Below the pieces are notes generated by a model. That model saw only the letters and a list, made by a program, of their open reading frames with translations, had not been told where the DNA came from and ran no database searches. Both the position numbers and the translations under genes were made by a program. Shown piece after piece: positions 3,061 to 45,453 of a stretch of 64,000 nucleotides of DNA. The stretch spans positions 258,785 through 322,784 of the forward strand of contig JAYPJF010000002.1 of assembly GCA_038128225.1 (NCBI GenBank). The letters run 5' to 3'. Position 1 is the stretch's first letter, and each line of letters starts with the position of its first letter. The stretch comes from a bacterium. GTDB lineage: Bacteria > Patescibacteriota > Minisyncoccia > Phycocordibacterales > UBA2100.

Positions 3061-4557
3061 ATGATGGGACGGAAAGTGGTGCGGATATTCAGTGCCTTAC
3101 TTGTGGGCGCGGTGCTGTTGGGTTCCAGTCCTCTTCCAGCATTCGCTGCAGGTCCAAACCTTGTTTCGAACCCTTCGCTTGAAACTGGAGCTGGGACGCC
3201 TGACATGTGGACTGCCACATATTGGGGCAACGTAACACCTACATTTCAATACCCGGTACCAGGACACACTGGCAACGGTGCCGGTATAACACTGAACGCA
3301 AACACTTCAGGTGACGCCCGTTGGGCACACGACCCGATTCCTGTTGAGGCGGGCGTAACGTACGAGTACAGCAACTGGTATGCATCAAATGTTGCGACTG
3401 AGATCAACGTCCTCTACATGTACACTGATGGCCACGTATCTTACGGTTGGGTTGCATCCCCTGCGTCTTCTGCAAACGCATGGAAACAGTTTTCTACTAC
3501 ACTCAAAATCCCTACGGGGGTAAGCTCTGTAGTACTATTCCACTTGATCGACAGAAAAGGAACTCTTGCTGTTGATGATTTCATTCTCGCAAAACAAAGT
3601 GGTGGCTCAGTGCCGAACAAGCCAACTGTTACGCTTTCTGCAAATCCGACAGCGGTTTCTGCAGGATCATCCTCGACACTCTCGTGGAATAGCCAGTACG
3701 CTGACACCTGTGTGGCATCTGGCGGCTGGACAGGAAACAAGTCGGTGACAGGGAACGAAATTGTCACACCGACGGTAAACACCAGCTACACTCTCGCCTG
3801 TACCGGAGCAGGTGGAACCACAAGCGTTTCAACCTCAGTTACTGTAAATACTGTACAGCCACCGCCGCCAACACCCGGACAATTTTCAGAAGGCATGGTA
3901 ACGCTTTCCTTCGATGACGCCTGGACTTCGCAGTACACTAATGCACTTCCAATACTCAATCAGGCGGGAATCAAAGGTACGTTCTACATTCTTTCAGAAC
4001 CGGTACAAGGAGGGTGGAGTTCGTATATGACACCGCAGCAAGTTAAAACGATCGCGCAGCAAGGGCATGAGATTGGAGGCCATACCGTGACGCATGCTGA
4101 TCTCAGTACACTAAGCAGTTCTCGCATCGATCGGGAAATTAAAAACTCAAAGACCTATTTGCAGAACCTGCTTGGCACCGCCGTTACGACACTCGCCTAC
4201 CCTTATGGCAGTTACAATACGACGGTGATCAATCGCACAAAACTTGCGGGCTATGGAAATGCGCGCACCGCTGACCCGACAATCGCGTATGGATTCAATG
4301 CTGCAACTCAGCCAAAGTATGAAATCAACAGCTTCTCACCGAATAAAAATGTTTCAGTTGCATCGATCAAGTCCGCCATCGACCAAGCAAAAGCAAACAA
4401 GCAGTGGTTTGTGTTCTCAGTCCACGAAGTCTTGCCATCAGGTGGGGATGAATATTCTATGACCACCGCCCAATTCAAAGAAGTGGTTGAGTACATCAAG
4501 GCAACCGGGATCAAAACCGTGACTATCGCGCAAGGCGCTGCGTTATTGCCAAACTAA
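3061..4557 (+). CDS. Secreted polysaccharide deacetylase (NodB/CE4 domain) with N-terminal carbohydrate-binding-like and Ig-like domains
   Basis: Signal peptide MMGRKVVRIFSALLVGAVLLGSSPLPAFA; TLSFDDAWTSQY and GHEIGGHTVTH are CE4 motifs. Confidence 0.75.
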   Translation: MMGRKVVRIFSALLVGAVLLGSSPLPAFAAGPNLVSNPSLETGAGTPDMWTATYWGNVTPTFQYPVPGHTGNGAGITLNANTSGDARWAHDPIPVEAGVTYEYSNWYASNVATEINVLYMYTDGHVSYGWVASPASSANAWKQFSTTLKIPTGVSSVVLFHLIDRKGTLAVDDFILAKQSGGSVPNKPTVTLSANPTAVSAGSSSTLSWNSQYADTCVASGGWTGNKSVTGNEIVTPTVNTSYTLACTGAGGTTSVSTSVTVNTVQPPPPTPGQFSEGMVTLSFDDAWTSQYTNALPILNQAGIKGTFYILSEPVQGGWSSYMTPQQVKTIAQQGHEIGGHTVTHADLSTLSSSRIDREIKNSKTYLQNLLGTAVTTLAYPYGSYNTTVINRTKLAGYGNARTADPTIAYGFNAATQPKYEINSFSPNKNVSVASIKSAIDQAKANKQWFVFSVHEVLPSGGDEYSMTTAQFKEVVEYIKATGIKTVTIAQGAALLPN

Positions 4558-8060: not shown

Positions 8061-9206
8061 TCAAACAGGCGAAGAGGCGTGCGCGAGTGTGGGAGTGTGA
8101 TTACTCAGAATACTTTTTAAGATCTCCGCAATCGGTGCGTGCGCGACGTTTACCGTATGATCGCCACCGCCATAGTACACAAGAAGCTCGTCGTCTTTGA
8201 TAACGGCACCACAGGTATATACAACACCTTGTTTCCAATAATTTTCATACGGAGTTTCGGGAGAGAGAATAGGCCCTGGTGAACGCGCGAGCACATGCCT
8301 CGGATCGCCTACATCTAAAAGCAACGCTCCGATTTTGTATTTACCCGGATCTCGCGCTTCAGTCGCATGGTACAAGACCAACCATCCTGCCTCCGTTTTT
8401 ATTGGCGGTGGCCCCACGCCACGCACCCATGTATCCCACGTGGCACGGGGAGTCTTTGATCCAAACGTGCTGCGAATGCGCACTTTACCGCGTGCGAGAT
8501 CCTCAAGGTGATCAACATAATCAATTTGTACTTCAGGATTGATGCTATGCAACAGCGCGTATTTACCTTTAATTTTCTCAGGAAACAGCACCCAGTTTTT
8601 GTGTATCTCTTTTTCTGGTGAAAGTAATATTGGTTGTGTCCAGGCCCACCACTTGCGTATAAAATCCTGAACACCCACGCGAACCTCACCAATACGCACA
8701 AAATCCCACCCATCAAATGCGTTGAAAGTAAGATGCACTGTTTCTCCGATAACGACCATACGCGGATCCTCGCATCCTCCCCAACTACCACCGGAAGGAT
8801 ACAGGACCGGATCGAATCGCTTCACACACGGATAACACTGTCGAGGGTTACGCAATTCGAATACCGGATACAATAGACGTTCATCAAAATTAAATCCATC
8901 AGCACTCGACGCGTACCCAATCCGCGAGACTCCATCAGCACCGATCGCACGATAGAGGAGATGCACGCGCCCGTTGATATATGCGGCCGCAGGGTTAAAC
9001 ACGGAATGAGCTTCCCACCCATTCTGTGCCGTTGGTTTTAAAAGCGGATTATGTGCATACCGATTAACGGTAAACCATGACTGAACGGCGGTTATCGCTC
9101 GCTGTACCCATGCAGCAAACACCGCATTGAACCACCAGAGTCCCAGTAATGCTGCGAGAAGCAAGAACACCACCGCGATGTTACTAAACGATGCTGTTTC
9201 AAACAT
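8061..9206 (-). CDS. Membrane-anchored GH130-family glycosidase/mannoside phosphorylase
   Basis: N-terminal TM, then HNPLLKP...VFNPAAAYINGRVHLLYRA...GGCEDPRMV. Confidence 0.75.
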   Translation of the reverse strand: MFETASFSNIAVVFLLLAALLGLWWFNAVFAAWVQRAITAVQSWFTVNRYAHNPLLKPTAQNGWEAHSVFNPAAAYINGRVHLLYRAIGADGVSRIGYASSADGFNFDERLLYPVFELRNPRQCYPCVKRFDPVLYPSGGSWGGCEDPRMVVIGETVHLTFNAFDGWDFVRIGEVRVGVQDFIRKWWAWTQPILLSPEKEIHKNWVLFPEKIKGKYALLHSINPEVQIDYVDHLEDLARGKVRIRSTFGSKTPRATWDTWVRGVGPPPIKTEAGWLVLYHATEARDPGKYKIGALLLDVGDPRHVLARSPGPILSPETPYENYWKQGVVYTCGAVIKDDELLVYYGGGDHTVNVAHAPIAEILKSILSNHTPTLAHASSPV

Positions 9207-9210
9207 ACAT

Positions 9211-9561
9211 TTATACTCGACCGTATTTGTCGTTTATGCGGTCGATATCATTTTCATCAAACGTCCCAAATGCGATCTCTAAAACACGATTGTCGTCACC
9301 CACGCCACGGAGTCGGTGTGGCGTGCCTGCCGAAACCCAAAATTCATCTCCAGGATGAGCGCGATGCGTCTCTTCTCCGATCACTATTTCAAGATCTCCT
9401 GTTAATACACGCCAAAATTCATCACGATTTTTGTGAGACTGAAGACTATTCTCTTCGTCGCGCGTCACCGAAAGAATTTTAACCGTTGTCGGCTCATTCA
9501 ATGTAAAACGGCGAAAACTCCCCCACGGCCGAGATTCTTCATATGGGCGAAGCGCTTCCAT
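9211..9561 (-). CDS. Cupin-domain protein (mannose-6-phosphate isomerase type II C-terminal-like)
   Basis: 116-aa cupin fold (GEETHRAHPGDEFWVSAGTPHRL); located between the GH130 genes and the phosphomannomutase. Confidence 0.55.
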   Translation of the reverse strand: MEALRPYEESRPWGSFRRFTLNEPTTVKILSVTRDEENSLQSHKNRDEFWRVLTGDLEIVIGEETHRAHPGDEFWVSAGTPHRLRGVGDDNRVLEIAFGTFDENDIDRINDKYGRV

Positions 9562-12128: not shown

Positions 12129-12318
12129 AGGCTCTCGCAAGCTAAAACATTGCGTGAGTTGGTAATAACTTATTTACTCGCGAAATTTTATTTTTGTGTT
12201 TGAAAAATATATCCACAAAAATTGCGGACTTGTACACAGATTTTCCACATGATGTCCCCGAAAAAAGGCAGAAGCGGCGGTTGACTTTGCGAGATTTTCG
12301 CCGACACTGAGGATAAGT

Positions 12319-12347
12319 TTGCTCTTTGAAAAGCGGTTCTCTATTAA
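12319..12347 (+). promoter_or_regulatory. Putative sigma70-type promoter for the Gam-like gene
   Basis: TTGCTC, 17 nt spacer, TATTAA, located about 155 nt upstream of the start. Confidence 0.25.
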
Positions 12348-12503
12348 AAAACATTTAAGGGGCGCAACGTGCCCCACTTGAAAAAAAGGTGGAACCACTT
12401 TACACAGAAGAGCGAGCCCAGCAGCGGGAACACCCCCATCGTAGATGCGGGGTGTTTCCTGTTATCTTTTTTGATAGACTCCACAAAGCACGACGCACAG
12501 GAG

Positions 12504-13049
12504 ATGCTCATGGTTACAAAGCAAAAAGAAGTGTCGTTTGGTACCGAGCGGGAAGCAAGTGGCGCACAACGGCAGCTTGCGCGAACACTACGAGAAATAG
12601 AGAAGACGCGAACGCGCGCGGCAGAACGCATTGACGCAATCAATGCTGCAGCGGACAATCAAGTTGCAATCCTCACTAATCACGCGATCGCGCTTGCAAA
12701 CGCGCTGGAAGCGTATGCGACCAGAGAACGCGAGTTCGCGAAAGGCAAGACGGTCACGATTGCCAGTGCGGGAGTCGTGCGTTGGCTCGATTCCCCGCCC
12801 GCTCTCGAAATTGATGACGTATCTGTGCTTCTGGCACAACTTAGGAAGCGCAAGCGACACCAGTACATTCGCGTGCGAGAGGAGATCGATAAGAGTGCGC
12901 TTTTGCGTGCGCTCCTGAGACGGCCACATATCGCCGCACAGCTTCCGGGTGTACGCGTTGCACGTTCAAGCAGAATTTTGATTCAACCCTCCGGTTCGGT
13001 GCTCGGTATTGAGCGACCCGAATCAAGAAGGCGTTGGCGTGTGAGATAA
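12504..13049 (+). CDS. gam: Bacteriophage Mu Gam-like protein (host-nuclease inhibitor / Ku-like DNA end-binding, PF07352-like)
   Basis: Aligns by eye with Mu Gam: GKTVTIASAGVVRWLDSPPALEI versus GKVKTANLVTGDVSWRVRPPSVSI, and DDVSVLLAQL..YIRVREEIDKSALL versus MDAVMETLERLGLQRFIRTKQEINKEAILL. RBS GGAG before ATG 12504/12510. Confidence 0.6.
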   Translation: MLMVTKQKEVSFGTEREASGAQRQLARTLREIEKTRTRAAERIDAINAAADNQVAILTNHAIALANALEAYATREREFAKGKTVTIASAGVVRWLDSPPALEIDDVSVLLAQLRKRKRHQYIRVREEIDKSALLRALLRRPHIAAQLPGVRVARSSRILIQPSGSVLGIERPESRRRWRVR

Positions 13050-13055
13050 GTACCC

Positions 13056-13088
13056 AGCCCGCGGCTAAGCCGCGGGCTACTCTTTTTT
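13056..13088 (+). terminator. Rho-independent terminator
   Basis: AGCCCGCGGCtaaGCCGCGGGCTactctttttt. Confidence 0.55.
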
Positions 13089-13204
13089 AATCATGTCGCT
13101 AAGCACTATGCGACACCATCCTGAGCCTAACAACGCCTCTCAACGCCCAGTTCTCGTGCTAAATAAAGTCCTCGTTTCATCAATAATTACCATTTCGTGC
13201 TAGA

Positions 13205-13969
13205 ATGCTCCCCGTGCCAGCACTCACAATCACTAATGTAACAAAAACATACGCCTCAGGTACACAGGCGCTCAAAGGAGTGTCGCTTGTCGTTCCCGCC
13301 GGAGACTTTTATGCACTCCTCGGACCAAATGGCGCCGGAAAAACAACAATCATCGGTATTGCTACAGGTCTCGTGACGAAGAGCGCAGGCACCGTGGAAG
13401 TTTTTGGGTTTAATACCGATAAAGATCCTGAACACGCAAAGGCCCAGATCGGCCTCGTCGGCCAAGAGATAAACTTCAACCCTTTTGAAAAGCCAATCGA
13501 TATCGTGGTGAATCAAGGCGGGTACTATGGCATACCACGCTCGGAGGCGATTCCTCGAGCAAAACAACTGCTTGCCGATTTGGGATTGGGCGAAAAAATG
13601 AACAATCGGTCTATGGAGCTTTCTGGCGGCATGAAGCGGCGTCTTATGATTGCGCGCGCCCTTATCCACAAGCCACGGTTTCTCATTCTCGATGAACCGA
13701 CTGCGGGTGTCGATGTCGAACTCCGGCGCGGTATGTGGGAGTACCTGCGCAAGCTGACCGCCGAAGGATTGACAATACTCCTCACCACACACTACCTGGA
13801 AGAAGCTGAGCAGCTCGCACAGCATATCGCCATAATCAATAAAGGAACGATAGTCGCTCAGGGAACCAAAGATGACATTCTCGCGCTCCATGACGAAACT
13901 GCACACGCGGGTGGATTTCGCTCAGGAAAACTTGAAGAGGTCTTTCTCCAGCTCACCAAAGAAAAATAG
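13205..13969 (+). CDS. ABC transporter ATP-binding protein
   Basis: Walker A GPNGAGKTT, signature LSGGMKRR, Walker B ILDEPTAGVD. Confidence 0.9.
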   Translation: MLPVPALTITNVTKTYASGTQALKGVSLVVPAGDFYALLGPNGAGKTTIIGIATGLVTKSAGTVEVFGFNTDKDPEHAKAQIGLVGQEINFNPFEKPIDIVVNQGGYYGIPRSEAIPRAKQLLADLGLGEKMNNRSMELSGGMKRRLMIARALIHKPRFLILDEPTAGVDVELRRGMWEYLRKLTAEGLTILLTTHYLEEAEQLAQHIAIINKGTIVAQGTKDDILALHDETAHAGGFRSGKLEEVFLQLTKEK

Positions 13970-22239: not shown

Positions 22240-22342
22240 TTTTAGTTGAGATGGTATATTTACAGAGTTGGATTTAATGGTATAGTCTTTTCGGCCAGCA
22301 ATTGCTGGATCTATATAGGTTAAACACACAGAGGAGGTGTGG

Positions 22343-23278
22343 ATGTTCGTCACATTCACAAAAGGATTCGTGCTGCACGCATTGTGGCAGCATATGAAGA
22401 GTCTTTTCTACTTCCTGTGCATCATGGGGGTGGCGATCCTGCCACCCTTCGCAGTCACGTGGACGTATGATCGAACGCATACCGGTGCTGCTGATTTCGT
22501 CGCGCAAGCGCTTGCCTGGTGGCCACTCGCCTACGTCGCCGCGTTTTTTCTTACAGTAGCGGCGCACGAGGCGGCTGGTTACTACTTCTACCAGCGTCGC
22601 GTGCGAAACCTCGATGGAACCACGGTGGACGACATCGTGGTACCGCTCGCTGAGCGTGCCGGAATACCGATGCCAACCATCGTGGTAATGGAGAGAGAGC
22701 ACTTCTTCAACGCGGGCGCCATGCACAGCTTCTTTTTTGGAGGCAAGATCATCGTCATGGGAAAAATACAGGAGTTGTTTCGCGAAAACCCCGGCAGGTT
22801 TGCTGCCGTGCTCGCGCACGAAGTAGCGCACCTGAAACATCGGGACATGATCCCGATGTGGGCCATTGCAATCGTGCAGCAGGTGCTCACCTTCCATCGC
22901 CTCGCACTTCTCGGGGTTGCGGCGGTCGGATCCGCGTGGTCGCCAGAGCATCTCGTGTTCCTCTGGGCACTCTTCGGAGTGTTCTGGGTGCTCGAGATCG
23001 TGGTGAGGCTTCTCACTGCGGCCGTGAGCCGGGCGCGTGAATACGTTGCGGACGTCGGCGCACATGCGCTCACGAAGGACTACGAGCTGCGCGACGATCT
23101 CATCGCCGCCATGCTCACCTTGGAGAATATCAGTTCGGGGCTGCATCCGATGCGGATTCTCGAACAGACAGGGTGGGCCGTCTTCCGCTCGCACCCCACC
23201 ACCGCCGACCGCGCCCGTGCATTGAAAGTCACAGGGCGACTGGCCGGAAATGGCGACTTTGTCGTTTCCGCGGCGTGA
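22343..23278 (+). CDS. htpX: M48-family zinc metalloprotease (HtpX-like)
   Basis: HEVAHLKHRD (HExxH) with flanking TM helices; RBS GGAGG 7 nt upstream of ATG 22343. Confidence 0.8.
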   Translation: MFVTFTKGFVLHALWQHMKSLFYFLCIMGVAILPPFAVTWTYDRTHTGAADFVAQALAWWPLAYVAAFFLTVAAHEAAGYYFYQRRVRNLDGTTVDDIVVPLAERAGIPMPTIVVMEREHFFNAGAMHSFFFGGKIIVMGKIQELFRENPGRFAAVLAHEVAHLKHRDMIPMWAIAIVQQVLTFHRLALLGVAAVGSAWSPEHLVFLWALFGVFWVLEIVVRLLTAAVSRAREYVADVGAHALTKDYELRDDLIAAMLTLENISSGLHPMRILEQTGWAVFRSHPTTADRARALKVTGRLAGNGDFVVSAA

Positions 23279-23290
23279 CACGTAAGAATC

Positions 23291-23325
23291 GGGGCGGCCT
23301 ACGCATAGGCCGCCCCGCTTGTTTA
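23291..23325. terminator. Bidirectional terminator between convergent genes
   Basis: GGGGCGGCCTacgcatAGGCCGCCCCgcttgttt. Confidence 0.5.
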
Positions 23326-23931
23326 TGCATCATTCCATTTTTCCGGAGGCCCCTTGTCTGGAGAAACCTCATACGGTTTGAATGTAACATTCGGCGATTC
23401 GAGAGCCCCACCGAATGAAAACGTCACCTCTCCTCGACTCAATCCCGCCCGATCAGCTCCTCCATGTGCAAGAAGTGCGCTGATTCTCTTAAAGAGACCC
23501 TTCGCCCGCGGGTGTCCCATTGAGATCACACACGTATGCAGGTCAGCTCCCCAGCGTTCGCTGCGCACAAGAAGAACCAAGTCTGGTTCCCCGAGTACGC
23601 CAGCGTGAAGCGACTGCTGTGTAGTCATCTCATACAGGGTCATCGAAAGCTGCCCACGTTCGTAGAGATGACATCGATGATCGAGTGTTCCTCGCGAAGA
23701 TTCATTGAGCATGAAACCCGATAAGAACACCAGAACTACCAATACATGAGCGACCGCAACGTACCATGGCTCAACGTTTCGATAGCGTAGCCACAGATTG
23801 AGAATAAAGAGGACTGAAAGTGCTCCTGTTGCGAGCAGCAGAAGTTCTGCCGCACGCATCGAAATGCCGAGCGAAACCGAGAGTGCATCAAACGCCGACG
23901 CTTCCACCCACGTGTTCCATTGGTCATCCAT
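23323..23931 (-). CDS. Hypothetical membrane protein (2 TM plus soluble domain), third gene of the MotA-like operon
   Basis: TM segments LLLLATGALSVLFILNLWL and VAVAHVLVVLVFLSGFML; 4-nt gap to the upstream gene. Confidence 0.45.
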   Translation of the reverse strand: MDDQWNTWVEASAFDALSVSLGISMRAAELLLLATGALSVLFILNLWLRYRNVEPWYVAVAHVLVVLVFLSGFMLNESSRGTLDHRCHLYERGQLSMTLYEMTTQQSLHAGVLGEPDLVLLVRSERWGADLHTCVISMGHPRAKGLFKRISALLAHGGADRAGLSRGEVTFSFGGALESPNVTFKPYEVSPDKGPPEKWNDA

Positions 23932-23934
23932 AGA

Positions 23935-24609
23935 TCACCTTCCTGTCATTATTGCGGCAAGTTTGGTTGCTGGATATTTCTCGAGTACTTCCTCGAGAAG
24001 CTGACTTCTCTCATTCCACGTTGCGATGAGAAGCGTCAGTTCCTCGCCTGGTTTCGTGAGCGTAAACGGCACCGTAGCAATCAAGTGTTCATGCGCATTG
24101 TCCTTATCTTGAATCGCAAGGAGCTCGCCTTCAACCGGCATGGGCCCATTGTGAGTATTGTAGAGGTGCACATTGACCCAGCAACGCGTAAGCGGCGGGA
24201 CCTTACCAACGTCGGTGTTTGATTCCGCCTTCTCCATGTTGATGACCGAAGGGCCACCAAGATCGTCTTGCTTCAAAACGAGCCAGCTGCTGTGCAGCTG
24301 CCTGAAGTTAACCGTTGCGAGCCCATAATCACCTCGCAAACTCGCGCATCGTAGTGCCACATCAATGTCATGAGGCAATCCATCGCCCCAAGTGATCTGA
24401 ACATACAAGGCGGTTGGTGTTGCCGCCATGCGCTTGTCCGCCATATCTTTCGGTGGCGGATTGATGTGCGGTGTTGCAAGCCCAGAAAGAATGATGCCGG
24501 TCGCACTTGTGTTGACCAAGAGATCATTGAATGCCAGCAACATCGTAAGAAAGCCAACGCCGATGAACGCGCTCGTATGTTTCATCTCACTCCTCCGCGC
24601 CTTGCGCAT
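23935..24609 (-). CDS. Hypothetical single-pass membrane protein in the ExbD/TolR/MotB position
   Basis: N-terminal TM FIGVGFLTMLLAFNDLLV resembles the MotB/ExbD helix (DFMTAMMAF) but has Gly in place of the conserved Asp; 23-nt overlap with the MotA-like gene. Confidence 0.45.
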   Translation of the reverse strand: MRKARRSEMKHTSAFIGVGFLTMLLAFNDLLVNTSATGIILSGLATPHINPPPKDMADKRMAATPTALYVQITWGDGLPHDIDVALRCASLRGDYGLATVNFRQLHSSWLVLKQDDLGGPSVINMEKAESNTDVGKVPPLTRCWVNVHLYNTHNGPMPVEGELLAIQDKDNAHEHLIATVPFTLTKPGEELTLLIATWNERSQLLEEVLEKYPATKLAAIMTGR

Positions 24610-25366
24610 GCAACACGGGAAATACCACCGTGAACATCAGCTCACTGAGACGGTCCGCTATGTCCTCGATTCGAGGTTCACAGATGAGAGACTTTACGAG
24701 CGTCAAGATGACGCATCCTGAAAGTCCCAGTACACCCGCCATATACCCCATCCCAAGTCCAGAGAGCATCTGGAAGTTGAATTTCTGGACTTCGTCGAAA
24801 GTTACTGGAGTTTGCTGTCCAAAATATGAGAGGAAAATTCCGAGAACAGAACCCAGAATGCCGACGAAGAATAAGATGACGATCGCGCGCTCGAGCTGGG
24901 TCGTACCTCGCGCAACCGTCCGCATAACGATCTCTTCGAACGCTTTGCGATTGATAGGCTCGCCGGTATTGTGCTCGTGCGCAACTCGATGTCGCGTCGC
25001 GAGCATGCAGAACGCACGCGTGATTGCCCCTGGCTGCTTCGTTGCGAGCGCTTGCGCAAGCATAGCGTTCAAGATTCCTGCACGCTTACGAGGTTCTTCA
25101 ACCCCGAGAAGCGCGTCAGAAAACAGGCGCAATTGTGCGTCATCGTCCGAAAGACGCCACACTACCGAATGCGCATACGCATACAGCACAGCAATGATTG
25201 CAAGTACGACAACCGCAATTGCAAAGGAAGCTGGCCGTTCGTTGAACGTGATAGCAAACTGCTTGCTGTCACTATTGAGTGCAAGAAGAAATCCTGCTAC
25301 CACCAGTACCACGGTGAGCGCACAGAAACGCTCATAGGCGCTCCATTGTGTGAGTTTTAGAGACAT
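24587..25366 (-). CDS. MotA/TolQ/ExbB-family proton-channel protein
   Basis: 4 TM; ILGSVLGI (compare ExbB LLGTVWGI) and AGVLGLSGCV in the last two helices, characteristic of MotA_ExbB. Confidence 0.65.
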   Translation of the reverse strand: MSLKLTQWSAYERFCALTVVLVVAGFLLALNSDSKQFAITFNERPASFAIAVVVLAIIAVLYAYAHSVVWRLSDDDAQLRLFSDALLGVEEPRKRAGILNAMLAQALATKQPGAITRAFCMLATRHRVAHEHNTGEPINRKAFEEIVMRTVARGTTQLERAIVILFFVGILGSVLGIFLSYFGQQTPVTFDEVQKFNFQMLSGLGMGYMAGVLGLSGCVILTLVKSLICEPRIEDIADRLSELMFTVVFPVLHAQGAEE

Positions 25367-25490
25367 GACTCGCTCCTTTTCTTTCCCTATTCACTGCCGA
25401 AGGGCAGTCCACTTTCGTTTATACGCTCCCCACTGGATGCGTCAAGCAAAAAACTCTTGTGGATAGTCCTTTTTTGATGCACAGCAGAAA

Positions 25491-25516
25491 CACCGGCGGC
25501 GAATTCGCCGCCGGTG
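25491..25516 (-). terminator. Hairpin downstream of the large surface-protein gene
   Basis: CACCGGCGGCGaattCGCCGCCGGTG, a perfect 11-bp palindromic stem. Confidence 0.4.
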
Positions 25517-25529
25517 TTGGCTGCTACCA

Positions 25530-28289
25530 CTATCGCATCGAGACTTCTCTGAAGTTGAAGCTCATCGGAGCCTCGAGGAAACTCCTCAAATCTCTAAAAA
25601 AGAGGTTGAGGATCGAGGGAGGGAGCTGAAATGGTATCGCTTCAGCTGCTGCAGCTGCTTGCACGTTCGCGTGCGCTTTTTCCCGCACTTCATCCAGGAC
25701 TTCGTCTTGTGAGGGCATGTCGAGCACCGCAGCAAGTGTCGGCGTTTCGATCGCGCCAACAGAACTGGTAGGAGGAAGCGGTTCATTGTTTTGGATCGCT
25801 GCCTCAAGTCGCGTGCGGAATGTTTCGATTTCTGATTGTTGCCCTGCGGTGAGACCGAAATCAGATACCCCCTGACAGTACAGGTTATTGATCATATTCT
25901 GTGTCGTGTAGTAGACATAGCCGGTCGCGCGCGTAATTCCCCACGGTTCGAGAATGTCGCTCTTGTTTGTTTCCTGGAACTGCTGCACGGCAGCAAGCGT
26001 TGCATTGTCGAAGATGCCGGTGATCTGCAAATCACTGCCGAGCCAATCGCGCAGGAAGAATTGAAGTTTGCGCACCTCTCGTTCATCATTGATCTCATTG
26101 ATGCCCAAGTAACTTGTGAGGTAGGGGGCACACTGTGGTGCTGCAACAATTTCTTCAGTCACTACCGGCGTGTTATTCAGTCGCGGCACAATGATGATTG
26201 ACGTGGATACAGTTGGTGAATGCCCAAACGCACCATAAAACGGGTTCACTGACGGATGGCGCGTAATCGCTTTTACTTGCGCCTTGTTCGTGTACTTTCC
26301 GGGTTTAGTCGATGTCGCAAATTGTACGGTGTAATCGACGGTGATTCGCTCCCCAGCAGGAATCTCCCCCAATCGCCATGTCTTCTGAAACACAGGTTGG
26401 CCGGCTCCATCGAGCATCGTGTCGAACAGTTCAGCGTGATATGCGGGTCCCTTGCCAGCATTGGTAACGACTATTTGATACTTGACCTCGCCGCCTGGCA
26501 CCGTCCCTTTTCCAACAACATTTTTTGTAATCTGAAGATCAGATTCTGGAGTGTATCGCACCGCAGTTCCACTGAACCCCCCATTCTGAAGTTGCAGTTG
26601 TTCGTTCACATCGTCCCAGAATGCTTGATCACCAAATCGCAAGTTTCCATTCCAGTCTCCCGAAATTGTGAAGAGCGCAAAAATCCAGTCTTGGCCGATA
26701 ATGTTCTGGTTCGCGAAGTTCAAGATATGCAAGAATGCATTCGCATCTCCGGTCCGTATTGCTGCAATAGTACCCTCAGCGACGTTGCCACCCGATACGG
26801 CCTCAACAAGAACGTTGTTAAGGATTTTTGCATAGTTGGTTGTTGTCGCGGTCACATTATCTTCAACATCAGTCGCTCGCTCAGCATTGCCCGCTCCACA
26901 AATGACTTCGCCAAATGGCGTCTCCTCGCGACTGAAGTTTTCAGGCAATCCGATAACGTCCCCATTCCACGTGCCCCCAACGTTCACGATAAAACAGATT
27001 GGGCGACCGCCCACTGAGTTTTGGTTCAGGAAGTTTTGCACTACAGCTCCCGTGTTTGCATCTCCGGTAACAACAAGCGCGCCTTCTGATCCAAGTGCTG
27101 CGTTCTCACCTGAGCTCGCTGTCGTGGTGCCATTATTGGTCACGTCCGCCGTATTATTGGCAGCAAAAGAACTTCCGTCATCAACCGAAGCCACGGTCGA
27201 AAGCGATGCAAAAAAAGTAGGAGGCGGTAATACCACATCACCTATCAAATCACCGACGTTACTCATAAGAATAACAAGGTACCGTGAGTTTACGATCTGA
27301 AGGTTTCCAAAGTTAATGATGCTTCCAAATGCGCTCGCGTCTCCTGTCTCGATAACTGCTGCGCCTTCTTCACTCTGCGCTTGATTCCCTCCTGAGTGCG
27401 AACGCACAACAAGCGTATTGGTAATTTCGGCCACACTGTCGGTGACAATGTTGAAAATCGCATCCGGGTTCACACACCCCGCGAGGGAACACGTTTCGTC
27501 ATTGGCGACGCCGCTGAAAATACTTTGAATGCGATCCGAGAGATCGAGCATGTCACCAATCGGGTTCTGGAGGAAGAGCAAACTTCCCGTTGAATTCGTG
27601 ATAACGACGTTAAACAAGGAAATGAGGACCGCAAATGCATCGGCCTCACCAGTAAATACGTAGGCGCCATCAGCATCTTCTGCCATGTTGCCGCCAGTTT
27701 CCGCAAACGCCACCGCGTCGTTTTGGTTATCAGCCGCACTTTCATTTTCTACTGCAACGTCCCCACCGCTTGCCCCTTGAGCCCCTTCGTCATTGGTGCC
27801 TCCTTCGCTAGTTTCTGTAGATGTGCCTGTGTCAGAAACCGTCGTGTCGTTCACGTTTGTCTGATCCACAACAGTTGCACCTGTTGACGCATCCCCTGTT
27901 TCAATAATTGAAGGTGCGCCATCGCTTGCCTGTGTCCCATCTCCTTCAGGTGTTGCTTGTTCTCCTGCCTGTGTGCCATCAGTCCCCGCCTCTCCGCCCT
28001 CGGTGGCATCACCATCTTCTCCAGCATCAGGAGTTGTTGTCTCGGCAGGAGCGCCGTCAGAACCATCAGCTCCATTTCCGCCATCTTCAAGTACCGGAGC
28101 CGGCGGTGTCGAATTATTTTCTTGAACAGGAGTTTCGACAACAGGAACACCCCCATCTTCAGCCCGAACAGAACTTGGAAACACCAACACGCCACCTGTA
28201 AGCACCACGATAAGAAGTGCTGCTACACACTGCTCAACAAAAAACCATTTTGAAAATTTATAGCCATCCGAATACATACGAAAATACAT
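25530..28289 (-). CDS. Large secreted surface protein with four internal SGGN...TGDA repeats, a DUF11 repeat and a C-terminal PG_binding_1-like domain
   Basis: Signal peptide; acidic low-complexity N-terminus; repeats such as AVIETGDASAFGSIINFGNLQIVNS; DUF11-like LQITKNVVGKG...VKYQIVVTNAGKGPA; C-terminal REVRKLQFFLRDWLG...AVQQFQ. Confidence 0.7.
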   Translation of the reverse strand: MYFRMYSDGYKFSKWFFVEQCVAALLIVVLTGGVLVFPSSVRAEDGGVPVVETPVQENNSTPPAPVLEDGGNGADGSDGAPAETTTPDAGEDGDATEGGEAGTDGTQAGEQATPEGDGTQASDGAPSIIETGDASTGATVVDQTNVNDTTVSDTGTSTETSEGGTNDEGAQGASGGDVAVENESAADNQNDAVAFAETGGNMAEDADGAYVFTGEADAFAVLISLFNVVITNSTGSLLFLQNPIGDMLDLSDRIQSIFSGVANDETCSLAGCVNPDAIFNIVTDSVAEITNTLVVRSHSGGNQAQSEEGAAVIETGDASAFGSIINFGNLQIVNSRYLVILMSNVGDLIGDVVLPPPTFFASLSTVASVDDGSSFAANNTADVTNNGTTTASSGENAALGSEGALVVTGDANTGAVVQNFLNQNSVGGRPICFIVNVGGTWNGDVIGLPENFSREETPFGEVICGAGNAERATDVEDNVTATTTNYAKILNNVLVEAVSGGNVAEGTIAAIRTGDANAFLHILNFANQNIIGQDWIFALFTISGDWNGNLRFGDQAFWDDVNEQLQLQNGGFSGTAVRYTPESDLQITKNVVGKGTVPGGEVKYQIVVTNAGKGPAYHAELFDTMLDGAGQPVFQKTWRLGEIPAGERITVDYTVQFATSTKPGKYTNKAQVKAITRHPSVNPFYGAFGHSPTVSTSIIIVPRLNNTPVVTEEIVAAPQCAPYLTSYLGINEINDEREVRKLQFFLRDWLGSDLQITGIFDNATLAAVQQFQETNKSDILEPWGITRATGYVYYTTQNMINNLYCQGVSDFGLTAGQQSEIETFRTRLEAAIQNNEPLPPTSSVGAIETPTLAAVLDMPSQDEVLDEVREKAHANVQAAAAAEAIPFQLPPSILNLFFRDLRSFLEAPMSFNFREVSMR

Positions 28290-28797
28290 TAGATACAAAC
28301 GCGTACACTTTGCTAATAACAGACTCCGCCGCGTGTTGAGGTTCAGCCTCAACGTCACTAATAATTTCTACGCCGGCGGGGCCCGGGTTCGCAGACTCTT
28401 CATGCACCACCACTTCTTCCGTGGTTATGGCTTTCTTTTCGCTTGAGATCGCAGTTGCAACCTCGCTCTTACCTGTGATCAGAGACGAGGTACCGGTATT
28501 GACATGCACTTGTGTCGAGACGCTCGCGCTGGTGCTCGTTGCTGTGTGTGCATACTTAATGGGTTCACTCTGTACGGTTTCTTCATATGCTTCCACAACT
28601 TTTCCATCAACAACCGTTTTGACTGACACACTACTGTTGCTTGCCCCTTCAAGAACCGTACCCCCCGTGCTCACATTACCTCCCGTAGTTGAGTGCACTT
28701 GTACTGAGTTATTCACTACGGTTGTTGCCGCACGCGCGACAAAAGGCGCACAGAGCCCAAGTGAAAAAATAAGTGTGTATGTCAGTGTGTACCGCAT
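28258..28797 (-). CDS. Secreted Ser/Thr-rich protein with a TGGNV motif
   Basis: Signal peptide MRYTLTYTLIFSLGLCAPFVARA; NNSVQVHSTTGGNVSTGG is related to its neighbours. Confidence 0.5.
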   Translation of the reverse strand: MRYTLTYTLIFSLGLCAPFVARAATTVVNNSVQVHSTTGGNVSTGGTVLEGASNSSVSVKTVVDGKVVEAYEETVQSEPIKYAHTATSTSASVSTQVHVNTGTSSLITGKSEVATAISSEKKAITTEEVVVHEESANPGPAGVEIISDVEAEPQHAAESVISKVYAFVSNVFSYVFGWL

Positions 28798-28877
28798 GCT
28801 TCTCGGCAAGACCTTAACCTTCAAGGTTCAGATCTTGCCAGAAGGGCTCTCAGAGAGAGCCGCTGTCTGGAAAACCA

Positions 28878-30086
28878 CTAGCGCAAGATGCGAGAGAGGT
28901 TTGTGTTGATGACGTTCATGAATGCTGAAGCAGTCTGAACTTCACCAGTTTGGATGAGGCCGCCAGCTGCACCGTTGCCGCCTTCGCCGCCCTCAGCGCC
29001 GTCACCTGTGTGACCGCCGTTGCCGCCAGCTGCACCGTTACCGCCGTTACCGCCCTCACCACCGTGACCACCGAGGTTGTTGCCAACGTAGGTTTCGTAC
29101 CAGTCGTACCAGTCATCAGACCAGATGTCCCACCAGTCTCCGCTACCGTTTGCATCACCACCGTTGCCACCCTCGTCACCGTCGCCGCCGCTGCCGCCTT
29201 TAGCACCATCGCCAGCGTTGTCGCCAGCTGAGCCGCCTTTGCCGCCCTTTGCGCCGTCGCCACCGTCAGAAACGTTGCCACCGGTGTTTGCAGTGTCAAT
29301 TACTGCGTTGGTTACTACTGCAGTGTTTGCGTTTACCACGCCAACATCCCCGTGATCAACTGGAACGTGGGTCTTTGCGTATTCACGATACGCCTTGTCC
29401 TTCATCCAGTCGTGGGTGTATCCGTCTTCGTCGCAATCATAATCACACCAGTCAGACCAATCATCCCAGTAGCCGTAGCCACCTGAAACATGATCTTCTT
29501 CATGAGAGAGTTTTTCCTTCTCCCAGATGTCGTACATTGCTTCGCCGCAACCGCAATCGGTTGTGTCGATTTCAGTGTCGTTGGTGTTTACTGTGTTTGA
29601 GATCACAACTCCGGTTGTGATGTCGCCGGTTGAGATTACTCCACCTACGCCACCGTTACCACCGTTGCCACCTGCTGCGCCTGATCCGGTTGAACCACCT
29701 TGGCCACCGTATGCAGCGTCGCCGCCGTTACCACCGTTACCACCAAAACCACCGAGGTTGTCACCGCCGTTGCCGCCGTTTGCTTCACCGCCGTTGCCAC
29801 CCTCGTCACCGTCGCCGCCGCTGCCGCCTTTAGCACCATCGCCAGCATTGTCGCCACCATTGCCGCCCTTGCCACCCTTACCAGCGTCGCCGCCAACTGC
29901 GACGTTACCACCGGTGTTTGCCGTCGTAACTACTGAGTTGGTTACTACTGCAGTGTTTGTGTTTGTGACAAACACATCTCCGTAGTCAACATCTGCAGAT
30001 GCTACGGTTGCTGCGCCGAACAATGCGATCGCTGCAACTACAACTGCAAAAACAACACCAAAAGACATTTCTCGAACTGTAGTCAT
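28878..30086 (-). CDS. Secreted Gly-rich repeat protein with an internal 210-aa tandem duplication
   Basis: NTAVVTNSVVTTANTGGNVAVGGDAGKGGKGGNGGDNAGDGAKGGSGGDGDEGGNGG is repeated as NTAVVTNAVIDTANTGGNVSDGG...; ends QTASAFMNVINTN. Confidence 0.6.
   Translation of the reverse strand: MTTVREMSFGVVFAVVVAAIALFGAATVASADVDYGDVFVTNTNTAVVTNSVVTTANTGGNVAVGGDAGKGGKGGNGGDNAGDGAKGGSGGDGDEGGNGGEANGGNGGDNLGGFGGNGGNGGDAAYGGQGGSTGSGAAGGNGGNGGVGGVISTGDITTGVVISNTVNTNDTEIDTTDCGCGEAMYDIWEKEKLSHEEDHVSGGYGYWDDWSDWCDYDCDEDGYTHDWMKDKAYREYAKTHVPVDHGDVGVVNANTAVVTNAVIDTANTGGNVSDGGDGAKGGKGGSAGDNAGDGAKGGSGGDGDEGGNGGDANGSGDWWDIWSDDWYDWYETYVGNNLGGHGGEGGNGGNGAAGGNGGHTGDGAEGGEGGNGAAGGLIQTGEVQTASAFMNVINTNLSRILR
29161..29345. 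repeat. Intragenic direct repeat copy A (about 185 bp)
   Basis: The first 56 nt are identical to 29791-29846 (ccgttgccaccctcgtcaccgtcgccgccgctgccgcctttagcaccatcgccagc); the remainder is about 75% identical. Confidence 0.7.
29791..29975. repeat. Intragenic direct repeat copy B (630 bp offset)
   Basis: Partner of 29161-29345. Confidence 0.7.
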
Positions 30087-41046: not shown

Positions 41047-43605
41047 ATGACACCCCCAATACGTCATCCGGGCACGACCTTCGATGAGGCACACGTGCTG
41101 CACTCGCTCAAACATTACCTCCCTTCGCAAGGCCCTTTGAAGGATTTCGTACATCACAATACGCTCCATGCCTTCCAGGATATGCTGTTTTATGACGCGA
41201 TCTTCAAAGCATCGGAGATTTTCGGTTACAAAGTGACATTCTCACTTGCTGAGTATCGCAACCTCTATCGGACCGGACGTATTCATACAACTATCCTTGA
41301 GAGGACCGTCCGTGAACACAAGGGTGATGAACATTTTGATGAGTGGTATCGCAAGGTACTGCATGAGACGTTCGGTGGCCAGCTCGAAGCGCGCATACAC
41401 GCGCTGCGAAAGGGGTGGCGAGAACACTACCCGATCGATCTCAACAATGCGGTACATCCCTTATTGTTCCGTATCTTATGCAGTTACCTCGACCAAGGCA
41501 TAGCCATCGTCCCGTTTCCGTATGAAAACGCGGGACTATTAGACGCGATACGAGCCTTAGAGAAAAACAGTGCGGCGCATTTCTTGAATACCGACCGAGC
41601 GCGAACACTCTTGCACGACCCTGACCTCACCCTCGAGGTATTGCTCACGATCCTGGTCGGTAAGCAAGAGTATTTTGAAGAGTACATCTACGGACAGCAG
41701 TTTGCGCACCGAGGATGGTCGGGCATGGTCTCGACTCTGGAGAATCGCCCCGAAACACTCCTGTACCCAAAAAAGATCGCCCTCAAGGACCTTATACTTC
41801 TGGAGTGTCTCATGGAAATCGATGCGTTGGATTCGGCATTCGGGCTGAATTGGAAACCGTTGGGTGAACTTACCAACCGCCCGCCTATGGACATCTTTGC
41901 AGATATCGATGCGAAAGAGATCTACGATGTCATCAAGATATGGCATGATGCGTTCGAGTGGAGTTACTACGACGAAGCACTGATGGCGATCAAGAAAAGC
42001 GCATCACATAATCCGAATACAAAGGAAGGAGCGAAGAGGTTCCAAGCAATATTCTGCATCGACGAACGCGAGGACTCGATCCGTCGCCACATCGAAAGCA
42101 CTGGCGCGTGCGAGACACTCGGCGCCCCCGGATTCTTCGGCGTCGAATTCTATTTTCACCCTGCGCACGCGAAGTTCTATGACAAATTGTGTCCCGCACC
42201 AGTGACGCCCGCATTCTTAATCGAGGAGATCCCGTCTGCCGAAAAACACACACCGGCTCGAGAAATCGTATACACGAAGGAATCCCACACGCTCATACGC
42301 GGAACGGTAGCCTCATACATCTTAGGAATACCTTCCCTCGTAAAACTCATTTTTAATCTCTTGTCTCCCACCATGAGCCCGGCCATCGCCGATGCGTTTG
42401 CGCACATGCACGATGAAAACGAACTAACCGTCGTACATGAGGGGAAACGGGACGAAGCGCGCAACCTCCAGATCGGCTTCACCGTGGCCCAGATGGCGGA
42501 CCGCGTGGAGAAACTCCTTCGCGGCATCGGATTGGTCCGGAATTTTACCCGCCTAGTGTACTTCATCGGCCATGGCTCTTCGAGCGCCAACAACCCTCAC
42601 CATGGCGCTCACGACTGCGGCGCCTGCAGCGGACGCCCTGGTTCTGTGAACGCCCGTGTCGCTGCGACTATGGCCAATCATCCAGATGTGCGCGAGGAAC
42701 TGCGAAAGCGCGGACTCGACATTCCGGCATCGACGCATTTCGTAGGCGGTCTCCACGATACCGCGAGCGATGAGATCGAATTCTACGACGAACGGAAGAT
42801 GTCTGCCGAGCACCAGGAACTCCACACACAAAACAAACAGGACTTCGAGCGCGCACTGGATCTCAATGCGAAGGAGCGTTCGCGACGGTTTATGTCGATC
42901 GACACGAAGCAATCGCTAGAACGAATTAGGAAGGCGATCAAACAACGATCCGTGTCTTACTTCGAACCGCGCCCCGAACTCGGTCATGGAACGAACGCAC
43001 TCTGTATCGTGGGTAACCGTGCGCTCACTCGCAACCTTTTCCTCGACCGACGCGCCTTCATGAATTCCTATGACTACCGCACGGATCCCGACGGGACCTT
43101 CCTTACCAATGTCATAGCGCCACTTCCTCTGGTATGCGGAGGCATCAACCTCGAATACTATTTCTCGCGCATGGACAACTCGAAGCTGGGAGCGGGTACC
43201 AAACTACCGCACAACGTGATGGGACTCATCGGTGTCGCTAACAGCAGTGATGGTGACCTACGAGCAGGGTTGCCCTTGCAGATGATTGAGGTGCATGATC
43301 CTATCCGGCTCATGATGATCGTCGAACATGATCCTGCGGTGGTATCGCGAGTCATCTTAGCAACACCTGCGCTCTCAGAGTGGTTCACCAATGAATGGGT
43401 CCATCTGGCAGCCTTCCATCCGGAAGAGAATAGACTGTATATCTTCAAAGACCGTGAGTTCGTCCCCTATGAGCCATGTACCGATGAGACAAGCGTCCTC
43501 GAGGAGGATTTCCTTGCGGTGATCGAATCTGCCGAAAAGATGAAGACCAACAACATCGTCGACGCGACCAAAGAGAATCTTCGCATCCGGCTCATGCCCC
43601 GCTAA
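41047..43605 (+). CDS. dabA: DabA (DUF2309/UPF0753) subunit of the DAB inorganic-carbon pump
   Basis: 852 aa; FCIDERED (Cys-x-Asp) and HGSSSANNPHHGAHDCGACSG (His/Cys) are placed like the Zn ligands of characterised DabA. Confidence 0.8.
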   Translation: MTPPIRHPGTTFDEAHVLHSLKHYLPSQGPLKDFVHHNTLHAFQDMLFYDAIFKASEIFGYKVTFSLAEYRNLYRTGRIHTTILERTVREHKGDEHFDEWYRKVLHETFGGQLEARIHALRKGWREHYPIDLNNAVHPLLFRILCSYLDQGIAIVPFPYENAGLLDAIRALEKNSAAHFLNTDRARTLLHDPDLTLEVLLTILVGKQEYFEEYIYGQQFAHRGWSGMVSTLENRPETLLYPKKIALKDLILLECLMEIDALDSAFGLNWKPLGELTNRPPMDIFADIDAKEIYDVIKIWHDAFEWSYYDEALMAIKKSASHNPNTKEGAKRFQAIFCIDEREDSIRRHIESTGACETLGAPGFFGVEFYFHPAHAKFYDKLCPAPVTPAFLIEEIPSAEKHTPAREIVYTKESHTLIRGTVASYILGIPSLVKLIFNLLSPTMSPAIADAFAHMHDENELTVVHEGKRDEARNLQIGFTVAQMADRVEKLLRGIGLVRNFTRLVYFIGHGSSSANNPHHGAHDCGACSGRPGSVNARVAATMANHPDVREELRKRGLDIPASTHFVGGLHDTASDEIEFYDERKMSAEHQELHTQNKQDFERALDLNAKERSRRFMSIDTKQSLERIRKAIKQRSVSYFEPRPELGHGTNALCIVGNRALTRNLFLDRRAFMNSYDYRTDPDGTFLTNVIAPLPLVCGGINLEYYFSRMDNSKLGAGTKLPHNVMGLIGVANSSDGDLRAGLPLQMIEVHDPIRLMMIVEHDPAVVSRVILATPALSEWFTNEWVHLAAFHPEENRLYIFKDREFVPYEPCTDETSVLEEDFLAVIESAEKMKTNNIVDATKENLRIRLMPR

Positions 43606-43611
43606 TCGCCT

Positions 43612-45453
43612 ATGTATCTGCCCTTCCTCGTCCTCCTGCCGCTGTTCGCCGCTCTATTCTGCAGTCTTTTCCCAAGTCGCTCAGAGAGAGTCATTTCGCG
43701 CATAGCGATCATATCCACGCTCGCGGCCATGTTCATGTTTGCGTGGACATTTGCCCTCTGGGTACGCGGTGGAGTTGAACCGATTTTCGATGCCGGATTG
43801 ACTCTATTTTCCAGCGACGCGTATGTGTTCGCCTTTAATTTCTACATGGATGCCATCTCGGCGGTTTTCTTCGGGGTGACCTGTCTCATTACGATCCTGA
43901 TCTTGCTCTTTAGTAAGTACTACATGCATCGGGACCCAGGGTTCCGGCGCTTTCACGCGACAATCCTTCTCTTTGTGTTCGGCCTCTCGCTCGTCATATT
44001 TTCGGGAAATTTTGAGACGCTTTTCGTGGGGTGGGAGTTCATCGGTATCAGCTCGTTTCTCCTGATCTCCTTCTACCGTGACCGGTACCTACCCACAAAG
44101 AATAGCCTCAAAGTGTTCGCCCTGTACCGCATCGCCGACACTCTCTTCATCATCGCTTTATGGTACGCGCATCACCTGTTCGACAAGAATGTCCTGTTTT
44201 CCGAGTTCGCGTCACTCATCGGCGAACACGGCAACGACCTCTTGATCCTGGGCATACTCTTCGTGGCGGTCGCTATGATCAAGTCTGCACAGTTCCCTTT
44301 CTCATACTGGCTCCCGCGTGCCATGGAGGGACCGACGACGTCTAGCGCCATTTTCTATGGGGCCTTGTCGGTGCATATCGGGTTGTTTCTTTTGCTCCGT
44401 ACCTATCCGTTGTGGGAAGGTAATACCGGGCTTCGCATACTGGTAGCGCTCGTTGGGCTTCTCACTGCACTCATAGCGACTTCGATCACCCGTGTGCAGT
44501 CGTCCGCGAAGACGCAGATCGCATACGCGTCGGTTACGCAGATCGGGATCATGTTCGTCGAGGTTGCAGCAGGGCTTCACGCCCTCGCATTGTTCCACTT
44601 CGTCAGTAATGCCTGCCTCCGCACGTATCAGCTGCTCATTTCTCCTTCGATACTGAGCTACCTAATTCACTATCAGTTTTATACCTTCACGCCACCCACA
44701 CATAAGATGCAGCCTAATTTCGTCGGGAAAATCCGTTCGACGCTCTTCATACTGGGGCTCAAGGAGTGGAATATGGATAGCGTCATGACGCATCACATCT
44801 GGCAGCCGCTCAAGTCTATGGGCCAGCGGCTGCGCTTTCTGGACAAAAAGCCCGCGTTGATGTTCTGCGTAGCACTCTTATTCTTGGGCATGTACGTCGC
44901 GCATGACGAGCACGCCTCTCGCATGATAGTGAGCGGCATGACATGGGTCAGTGCGGTACTGAGCATACTCCTTTTCGTGCGCTCCTACGCGAATACGGGC
45001 ACAGCGCTCGCATGCTGGACACAGGTTTTCTTTGGCCAGGTCTTTGCGTTCGTATTCTTGATTACACTAACAGAGGTGACGTTCCAAACCGCCCTCATCT
45101 ATCTTACTGGCATCGTGCTTGCGTATGCCGCAGGACTACTGTGTCTCAGATTCCTTGATACTGGTAGCGTCCGACTCAGCGTGAGCGAGTATCATGGCTA
45201 CATGTATAAACACCCCGCGATAGGCAACATATTCTTCGTCGCTACTCTAGCGATGGTTATGTTTCCGATTACGCCGTCCTTTATCGGCGAGGAAGTACTC
45301 TTGAGCGGGATTCACACGGATCAAAGTGCGTTCGTAGCTGTCTTCATATTAGGGTATGTTCTTTCAGGAGTGAGCTCGATGCGGCTCTTTGCGAAAGTAT
45401 TCTTCGGTCCGCACGCAAAGACCTACCACGAGATGGCATATAGATCGTCCTAG
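43612..45453 (+). CDS. dabB: DabB, NuoL/MrpA-family proton-translocating membrane subunit
   Basis: About 15 TM; SAQFPFSYWLPRAMEGPTTSSAIFYGALSVHIGLFLL matches the PF00361 core ([22 protein letters not shown]); 6 nt after the dabA stop. Confidence 0.8.
   Translation: MYLPFLVLLPLFAALFCSLFPSRSERVISRIAIISTLAAMFMFAWTFALWVRGGVEPIFDAGLTLFSSDAYVFAFNFYMDAISAVFFGVTCLITILILLFSKYYMHRDPGFRRFHATILLFVFGLSLVIFSGNFETLFVGWEFIGISSFLLISFYRDRYLPTKNSLKVFALYRIADTLFIIALWYAHHLFDKNVLFSEFASLIGEHGNDLLILGILFVAVAMIKSAQFPFSYWLPRAMEGPTTSSAIFYGALSVHIGLFLLLRTYPLWEGNTGLRILVALVGLLTALIATSITRVQSSAKTQIAYASVTQIGIMFVEVAAGLHALALFHFVSNACLRTYQLLISPSILSYLIHYQFYTFTPPTHKMQPNFVGKIRSTLFILGLKEWNMDSVMTHHIWQPLKSMGQRLRFLDKKPALMFCVALLFLGMYVAHDEHASRMIVSGMTWVSAVLSILLFVRSYANTGTALACWTQVFFGQVFAFVFLITLTEVTFQTALIYLTGIVLAYAAGLLCLRFLDTGSVRLSVSEYHGYMYKHPAIGNIFFVATLAMVMFPITPSFIGEEVLLSGIHTDQSAFVAVFILGYVLSGVSSMRLFAKVFFGPHAKTYHEMAYRSS

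Follow-up and report, generated by a model that had tools for sequence, protein, structure and literature searches.

To our knowledge, motors of the MotA/ExbB type are the only bacterial route by which proton-motive force reaches structures beyond the cytoplasmic membrane, and each newly characterised branch (Ton, Tol, gliding and Zorya) has revealed a new cell-biological process. In TolQ-TolR-TolA and ExbB-ExbD-TonB a channel subunit is combined with a single-pass subunit that carries a carboxylate and with a membrane-anchored third protein, and in ZorA-ZorB (PDB 8qyd, 8vvn) the ZorB subunit harbors an essential or conserved Asp in its N-terminal helix. These features recur in a three-gene operon located on the minus strand of a 64,000-nucleotide stretch of bacterial DNA (contig JAYPJF010000002.1, positions 258,785 to 322,784), which is referred to as the window. 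Gene A (24587-25366, 259 amino acids) encodes a divergent subunit of the MotA/ExbB/TolQ/ZorA superfamily. The product of gene B (23935-24609, 224 amino acids) has a basic N-terminus, an acidic residue (D29), a membrane helix, an N-P-P-P linker and a predicted beta-sandwich ectodomain, and that of gene C (23323-23931, 202 amino acids) has two transmembrane (TM) segments and an ectodomain of about 125 residues. On balance, the operon probably encodes an undescribed and rare ion-driven membrane motor that has three components and belongs to the MotA/ExbB/TolQ/ZorA class. A sequence-only reading of the same DNA had proposed three co-directional genes with exactly these coordinates and had described a motor-like module whose partner subunit lacks the protonatable Asp. 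Most of that description is accurate. Its most striking part, the partner without Asp, is wrong.

ZorA was the best match of subunit A in both sequence profile and fold. Hydropathy analysis revealed four hydrophobic segments (residues about 15-31, 47-67, 160-182 and 205-227) that are grouped 2+2 on either side of a loop of about 90 amino acids, and the motifs ILGSVLGI and AGVLGL occupy residues 170-177 and 210-215, in agreement with the sequence-only reading. A thus resembles MotA, with four TM segments, and differs from TolQ and ExbB, which have three. Residues 68-158 make up a small helical domain in the cytoplasm, and the protein ends in a helix of 30 amino acids. In its compactness the cytoplasmic domain corresponds to the non-flagellar 'generic ion transporter' type (PMC12505986), whereas it is small in comparison to those of MotA and PomA. 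Taken alone, the window protein gave no match in NCBIfam or in a single-sequence search of the PDB and a faint ZorA1 match in PADLOC (E 0.026), and a word-indexed search of 5.8 billion proteins returned only the query. An exhaustive HMMER search, run against 1.84 billion cluster representatives, yielded 18 relatives with E values from 2.6e-27 to 8e-4. Pfam family MotA_ExbB (PF01618) matches 12 of the 19 A-family members, and three of them, P0018, P0021 and P0022, exceed its gathering score of 22.9 bits (31.9, 27.2 and 23.5 bits); their E values against the window protein are 1.8e-20, 2.0e-14 and 2.8e-14, respectively. Members of the family also match the PADLOC ZorA models with E values down to 1.3e-7, and the family profile retrieved ZorA as the best PDB entry (1.7e-4), followed by ExbB, TolQ and MotA. 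The fold of motor A subunits was found in the predicted structure, which is a high-confidence model. Transitive hidden Markov model (HMM) evidence via the relatives, together with this modelled fold, establishes A as a MotA/ExbB-superfamily subunit and remote homologue of motor A subunits. The assignment is solid because of the relatives, namely their PF01618 scores, the ZorA models and the family profile, and not because of the window protein alone.

It has been shown for ZorA that T147 is part of the ion-selectivity filter (PMC11946911). A shares this polar residue of the TM3 motif GxxGT/S: Ser173 (codon 24848-24850, minus strand), located in the sequence GILGS, takes the position of the conserved Thr in the family motif GLLGT and is aligned with T147 of ZorA and T145 of TolQ. 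Comparison of the A family with E. coli TolQ by hhalign (E 3.5e-4, probability 37%) likewise placed GLLGT opposite the GLFGT of TolQ. The extracytoplasmic loop between TM3 and TM4 (residues ~184-195, 24782-24817) harbors the conserved family motif P-x-T-x-E-E-x-K-x-F, which is aligned with the P-S-T-P-E-Q loop of ZorA and has P-x-T-x-E in common with it. This loop may contact the N-P-P-P linker of B and serve there as a plug or gating site.

The partner subunit B contains a single N-terminal hydrophobic stretch. Thirteen homologues were located in a large protein collection and further ones were obtained from related loci. The family follows a common layout with a basic N-terminus, a carboxylate at position 23-31, about 18 helix residues, a conserved Pro and the N-P-P-P linker. 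The column of D29 (GAT codon at 24523-24525, minus strand), positioned where the membrane helix begins on its cytoplasmic side, is acidic in 25 of 25 family members (Asp in 23, Glu in two), and the surrounding helix varies. E. coli TolR (D23), ExbD (D25) and MotB (D32) show a matching layout with comparable spacing between the carboxylate and the Pro. The two Glu-bearing proteins are encoded in the Paceibacterota locus L009 (9235-10711) and in locus L025 (1493-2203); in the latter the acidic residue precedes the clearly hydrophobic helix, which is also the order in MotB, ExbD and TolR. Moreover, the gene directly following that of the Pfam-positive P0018 belongs to the B family and bears the Asp. 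With a single N-terminal membrane helix, a carboxylate near its cytoplasmic end and a gene adjoining A, B displays the features of MotB/ExbD/TolR/ZorB-type partners. The carboxylate is conserved, and its placement matches that in known B subunits, thus the ion-binding logic looks conventional. Judged by position and conservation in the sequence, D29 is proposed to be the ion-binding site and would be equivalent to MotB D32, ExbD D25, TolR D23 and ZorB D26.

The claim that Gly replaces this Asp was based on an alignment of GFLTMLLAF in B with DFMTAMMAF in MotB, which puts Gly20 opposite MotB D32. It is nine residues out of register and was rejected because G20 is not conserved among the homologues and the conserved acidic residue is located nine positions downstream. 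According to the sequence-only reading, B would be conventional if it aligned confidently to ExbD/TolR with an Asp elsewhere in the helix; the Asp is present as D29, but the confident alignment was not obtained. Due to the conserved D29 the system is mechanistically more conventional at the ion-binding site than had been claimed. The module is unconventional in its ectodomains and in its third subunit. As a side observation, Glu in the B protein of L009 occurs together with Val at the TM3 Thr/Ser position of A, and these two changes at the putative ion site may be correlated.

Outside the helix, B is unrelated to ExbD and TolR. Neither B nor its 13 aligned family members matched Pfam, NCBIfam or PADLOC, and homology to MotB_plug, OmpA-type or ExbD (PF02472) domains was not detected in the Pfam scans. 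In this respect B differs from MotB and PomB, which have an OmpA-like domain. The AlphaFold2 model of B (overall predicted local distance difference test score, pLDDT, 71.7; block means 63-94 across the ectodomain) predicts a long helix of low confidence at residues 15-44, a disordered Pro-rich linker and a beta-sandwich at residues 63-220 (23950-24423, minus strand), which contains the invariant residues C88 and C143 and the acidic motifs PHDxD and DDxG..NxE. The predicted domain thus has neither an OmpA-like nor an ExbD-like periplasmic fold, in line with the sequence-only reading. The net charge is +4 at the N-terminus and +1 after the helix, and this distribution favours an orientation with the N-terminus inside and the C-terminus outside the cell. 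A TerD-like ectodomain is tentatively suggested by a likeness of the model at the level of the fold only. It shows no sequence similarity to the TerD family (PDB 2qz7, 2kxt) and no match to the TerD HMM in Pfam. The assignment stays tentative because Foldseek gave no significant match of the B model in the PDB and did not recover TerD. TerD proteins are moreover soluble and cytoplasmic, whereas the domain in B is membrane-tethered and probably outside the cell. At locus L022 (2304-2516) a B-family gene ends after 70 amino acids, directly past the N-P-P-P linker, and therefore lacks the ectodomain; it represents either a truncated variant, a pseudogene or an assembly error.

Subunit C has TM segments at about residues 27-50 and 55-75 with a short basic loop between them, and after these a soluble part of about 125 amino acids, which agrees with the two TM segments and soluble domain of the sequence-only reading. 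The basic loop suggests, by the positive-inside rule, that the C-terminal domain faces outward, in which C would resemble the third proteins of the Tol and Ton systems. A word-indexed search with C returned only itself, and its homologues were identified by position, as the gene after B, in all loci whose sequence reaches that far. Eighteen positions are invariant in the family, including W47. Conserved motifs are G81-x-x-D84-x-x-C87-x-x-Y90, R126-W127-G128-x-x-x-H132-x-C134, T170-x-x-F173-G174 and P180-N181-V182. The ectodomain thus harbors an invariant pair of Cys residues (C87 and C134), as B has one of its own. Neither C nor its family profile matched Pfam or the PDB, and no family in Pfam or NCBIfam covers B or C. 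In contrast to TonB and TolA, C combines two TM segments with a small globular domain, has no long spacer, and showed no TonB_C or TolA_III domain in the Pfam scans.

A, B and C are translationally coupled and kept together. Genes A and B overlap by 23 nucleotides (24587-24609), as had been noticed before, and genes B and C are separated by 3 nucleotides rather than the 4 reported earlier. The order A-B-C was found in all loci of sufficient length (L006/L007, L008, L009/L017, L010, L011, L014/L021, L023, L025/L026 and L027, with the same order in partial contigs), usually with an overlap of A and B. This amounts to more than ten independent loci, whose proteins are 20-45% identical, and bears out the proposal that the third gene completes a conserved operon. 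Copies of the window locus are present in five independent sequencing runs, among them DRR685536 and SRR26337528, and are identical except for single substitutions in B or C. One relative of the module is encoded in a metagenome-assembled genome (MAG) of Candidatus Paceibacterota (DATKNP010000017.1), which fits the candidate phyla radiation (CPR)-like context suggested from the sequence. Paceibacterota are generally regarded as a lineage without an outer membrane, and the host of the module probably lacks one as well, a difference to the hosts of Ton and Tol systems. Literature searches yielded no description of this architecture or of MotA/ExbB proteins in Patescibacteria. CPR lineages also go unmentioned in a recent survey that covers MotAB together with its non-flagellar relatives (PMC12505986).

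The genes flanking the module were compared between loci. An M48 peptidase (22337-23278) and surface proteins adjoin it in the window, an ECF (extracytoplasmic function) sigma factor and DUF5667 (102-1937) in L006, BipA and a PspC-domain protein (12238-13338) in L010, topoisomerase I, DprA (8329-9291) and a PilO-like protein in L014, PrsW protease and HSP20 (3132-4309) in L025, and DprA (720-1817) in L027. DprA is thus located divergently upstream in two loci (L014 and L027). Membrane-stress and protease genes lie beside the module in otherwise unrelated contexts, which may be coincidence. The window genes scanned include none that would be a flagellar, Tol-Pal, TonB, gliding or Zorya partner, as the sequence-only reading had stated.

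In the mechanism that we propose for the motor, A would form a membrane ring, pentameric by analogy with known motors, and the membrane helices of a B dimer would be placed inside it, giving a presumed 5:2 stoichiometry. Protonation and deprotonation of Asp29 in B, facing Ser173 in TM3 of A, would couple a putative inward ion flow to movement of A against B. Outside the cell, B would be held by its beta-sandwich, which may bind a ligand of the cell wall or surface, perhaps with Ca2+. C, with a two-helix anchor and a disulfide-type ectodomain, would receive or modulate the work; by analogy, its position in the operon is that of TolA in tolQRA and of TonB in exbBD-tonB. Our best guess is that the energised process takes place at the envelope or surface of a CPR-type monoderm. 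A more specific version is put forward as a tentative possibility. It holds that the module is an unrecognised class of 5:2-type motors, possibly specific to ultra-small CPR/Patescibacteria-like monoderms, in which a TerD-like and possibly Ca2+- or glycan-binding beta-sandwich replaces the peptidoglycan-binding domain and anchors the stator axle outside the cell, and in which the subunit with two TM segments passes proton-motive force to a surface process such as host attachment, pilus or wall dynamics, or DNA uptake.

Several results weigh against an assignment to the motor class. The window protein A has no PF01618 match in Pfam even at E<=1; its membership in the superfamily, which the sequence-only reading had called clear, holds through the relatives and the predicted structure, but it is not clear from the protein itself. 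Of the two polar pore residues the window protein contains the first (S173), whereas the second filter position, occupied by S184 in ZorA and T178 in TolQ, is Gly211 and is variable in the family, and in the A protein of L009 the Thr/Ser of TM3 is replaced by Val. The membrane helix of B is predicted with low confidence (pLDDT 41-59). Comparison of B with E. coli TolR and ExbD by hhalign gave probabilities of 0.2-0.3% and no similarity, and its family profile retrieved nothing meaningful from PDB sequences or Pfam. Finally, the neighbours of the module differ between loci and none is conserved that would point to a cargo.

The lack of a conserved cargo gene also fits a gated ion channel or an envelope-stress or Ca2+-sensing module that produces no work, which is the strongest of the alternatives and is considered unlikely. 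Here the A oligomer would conduct ions, and a TerD-like, possibly Ca2+-binding ectodomain of B would sense or regulate together with C, as in membrane-stress systems of the Ter or Psp type. The conserved acidic motifs in B are in line with this, and so are the M48 peptidase, PrsW and HSP20, the PspC-domain protein, and the ECF sigma factor with DUF5667 that adjoin the module in unrelated contexts. However, no stress-gene neighbour recurs across the loci examined, and the likeness to TerD is found at the fold level, with neither a Pfam match nor Foldseek support. In addition, all characterised members of the A superfamily that have a carboxylate-bearing partner are mechanical transducers (reviewed in PMC9389320).

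ZorA is the closest relative of A, and the module could accordingly be a Zorya-like variant of anti-phage defence, in which A and B form a membrane sensor of envelope perturbation that signals to an effector. This appears quite improbable. A terminates about 30 residues past TM4 and therefore has no ZorA-like tail, and the long tail of ZorA is required for signalling (PMC11946911). B contains a beta-sandwich instead of the peptidoglycan-binding domain of the OmpA type, and the module has a third membrane subunit, C, but neither ZorC, ZorD nor ZorE; in PADLOC, ZorA-type matches were obtained for A only, and ZorB was not matched either. The neighbourhood is not that of a defence island, a co-occurrence that had been raised with the sequence-only reading: PADLOC found no defence gene among the ten genes that flank the module in the window, over roughly 4 kb in one direction and 9 kb in the other, and the neighbours in the various loci are housekeeping genes that differ from locus to locus.

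An ordinary ExbB-ExbD-TonB, TolQ-TolR-TolA or flagellar MotAB system that has diverged past easy recognition is very improbable, although A, the single-pass carboxylate subunit B and the membrane-anchored third protein mirror tolQ-tolR-tolA and the A family is similar to TolQ in hhalign (E 3.5e-4). B has a beta-sandwich in place of an ExbD, MotB_plug or OmpA match, C has two TM segments without TonB or TolA features, and the window genes scanned include no TolB/Pal, TonB-dependent receptor or flagellar gene. The occurrence in a Paceibacterota MAG, from a lineage held to lack an outer membrane, also speaks against such a system, and the ordinary exbB-exbD-tonB operon that the sequence-only reading had considered is excluded. 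That the three genes are chance open reading frames or decaying genes is hardly credible: the family is very small and the B gene of L022 is truncated after 70 amino acids, but A, B and C are all conserved between distant loci and share many invariant residues, near-identical copies occur in five independent samples and the model of A is of high confidence.

In the favoured motor reading, a conserved ring-plus-carboxylate core is thus joined to two protein domains without described relatives. The bacteria whose genomes carry the module probably have neither an outer membrane nor flagella. The most surprising claim, a motor without a protonatable Asp, does not hold, which lowers the surprise. 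What remains is a rare and compact motor-like system that includes two novel proteins with ectodomains and whose hosts are probably CPR-type monoderms. If it is active, CPR-like bacteria, about whose cell biology little is known, would possess an energised process at their surface. With three genes on about 2 kb, it is also a compact system for probing the tolerance of the 5:2 mechanism to changes in the partner subunits.

The operon is accompanied by signals for expression. The Shine-Dalgarno sequence AAGGAG (25373-25378, minus strand) is located 6 nucleotides ahead of the ATG of gene A. Further upstream, the promoter-like element TTGACG-N16-TATAAA (25418-25445, minus strand), read directly from the sequence, may serve as the promoter of the operon. 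It was missed by a strict consensus scan because its -10 hexamer ends in A. A 12-bp GC-rich hairpin (23290-23317) between gene C and the convergent M48 peptidase gene is a probable bidirectional terminator, and a terminator-like hairpin upstream of gene A (25494-25510, minus strand) ends the preceding gene for a surface protein of 942 amino acids. The promoter region and the strong bidirectional terminator that the sequence-only reading had placed around the operon thus have counterparts in the promoter-like element and in the strong hairpin next to gene C, but the promoter was not confirmed by the strict scan.

The surface-protein gene is one of three consecutive genes directly upstream of the operon (25530-30086, minus strand) that probably encode surface or secreted proteins. 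The first product (942 amino acids) contains DUF11/CARDB and PG_binding_1 domains, the second comprises 188 amino acids, and the third (402 amino acids) is rich in GGNGG-type repeats and has no Pfam match. These genes are split from gene A by the terminator-like hairpin and are not conserved beside the module elsewhere. On the other side of the operon, positions 1-21210 are occupied by a large block of polysaccharide and cell-wall genes, encoding a GT4 glycosyltransferase, two polysaccharide deacetylases, two GH130 phosphorylases, a phosphomannomutase, a UDP-glucose dehydrogenase and a chitin-synthase-like GT2 protein as well as a two-component system and an ABC-2 transporter. The window is chromosomal. 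It contains rpoB, rpoC, rpoD, dnaG and hisS, and RNase R and an SMC-type protein are encoded there too. An open reading frame of 335 amino acids (22274-23281, minus strand) lies wholly antisense to the M48 peptidase gene and is almost certainly no gene. A DabA gene (PF10070, E 2.7e-214) followed by a gene for a Proton_antipo_M protein at 41047-45453 (plus strand) constitutes a two-gene DAB inorganic-carbon pump pair, which would be unusual if the genome belongs to a CPR bacterium.

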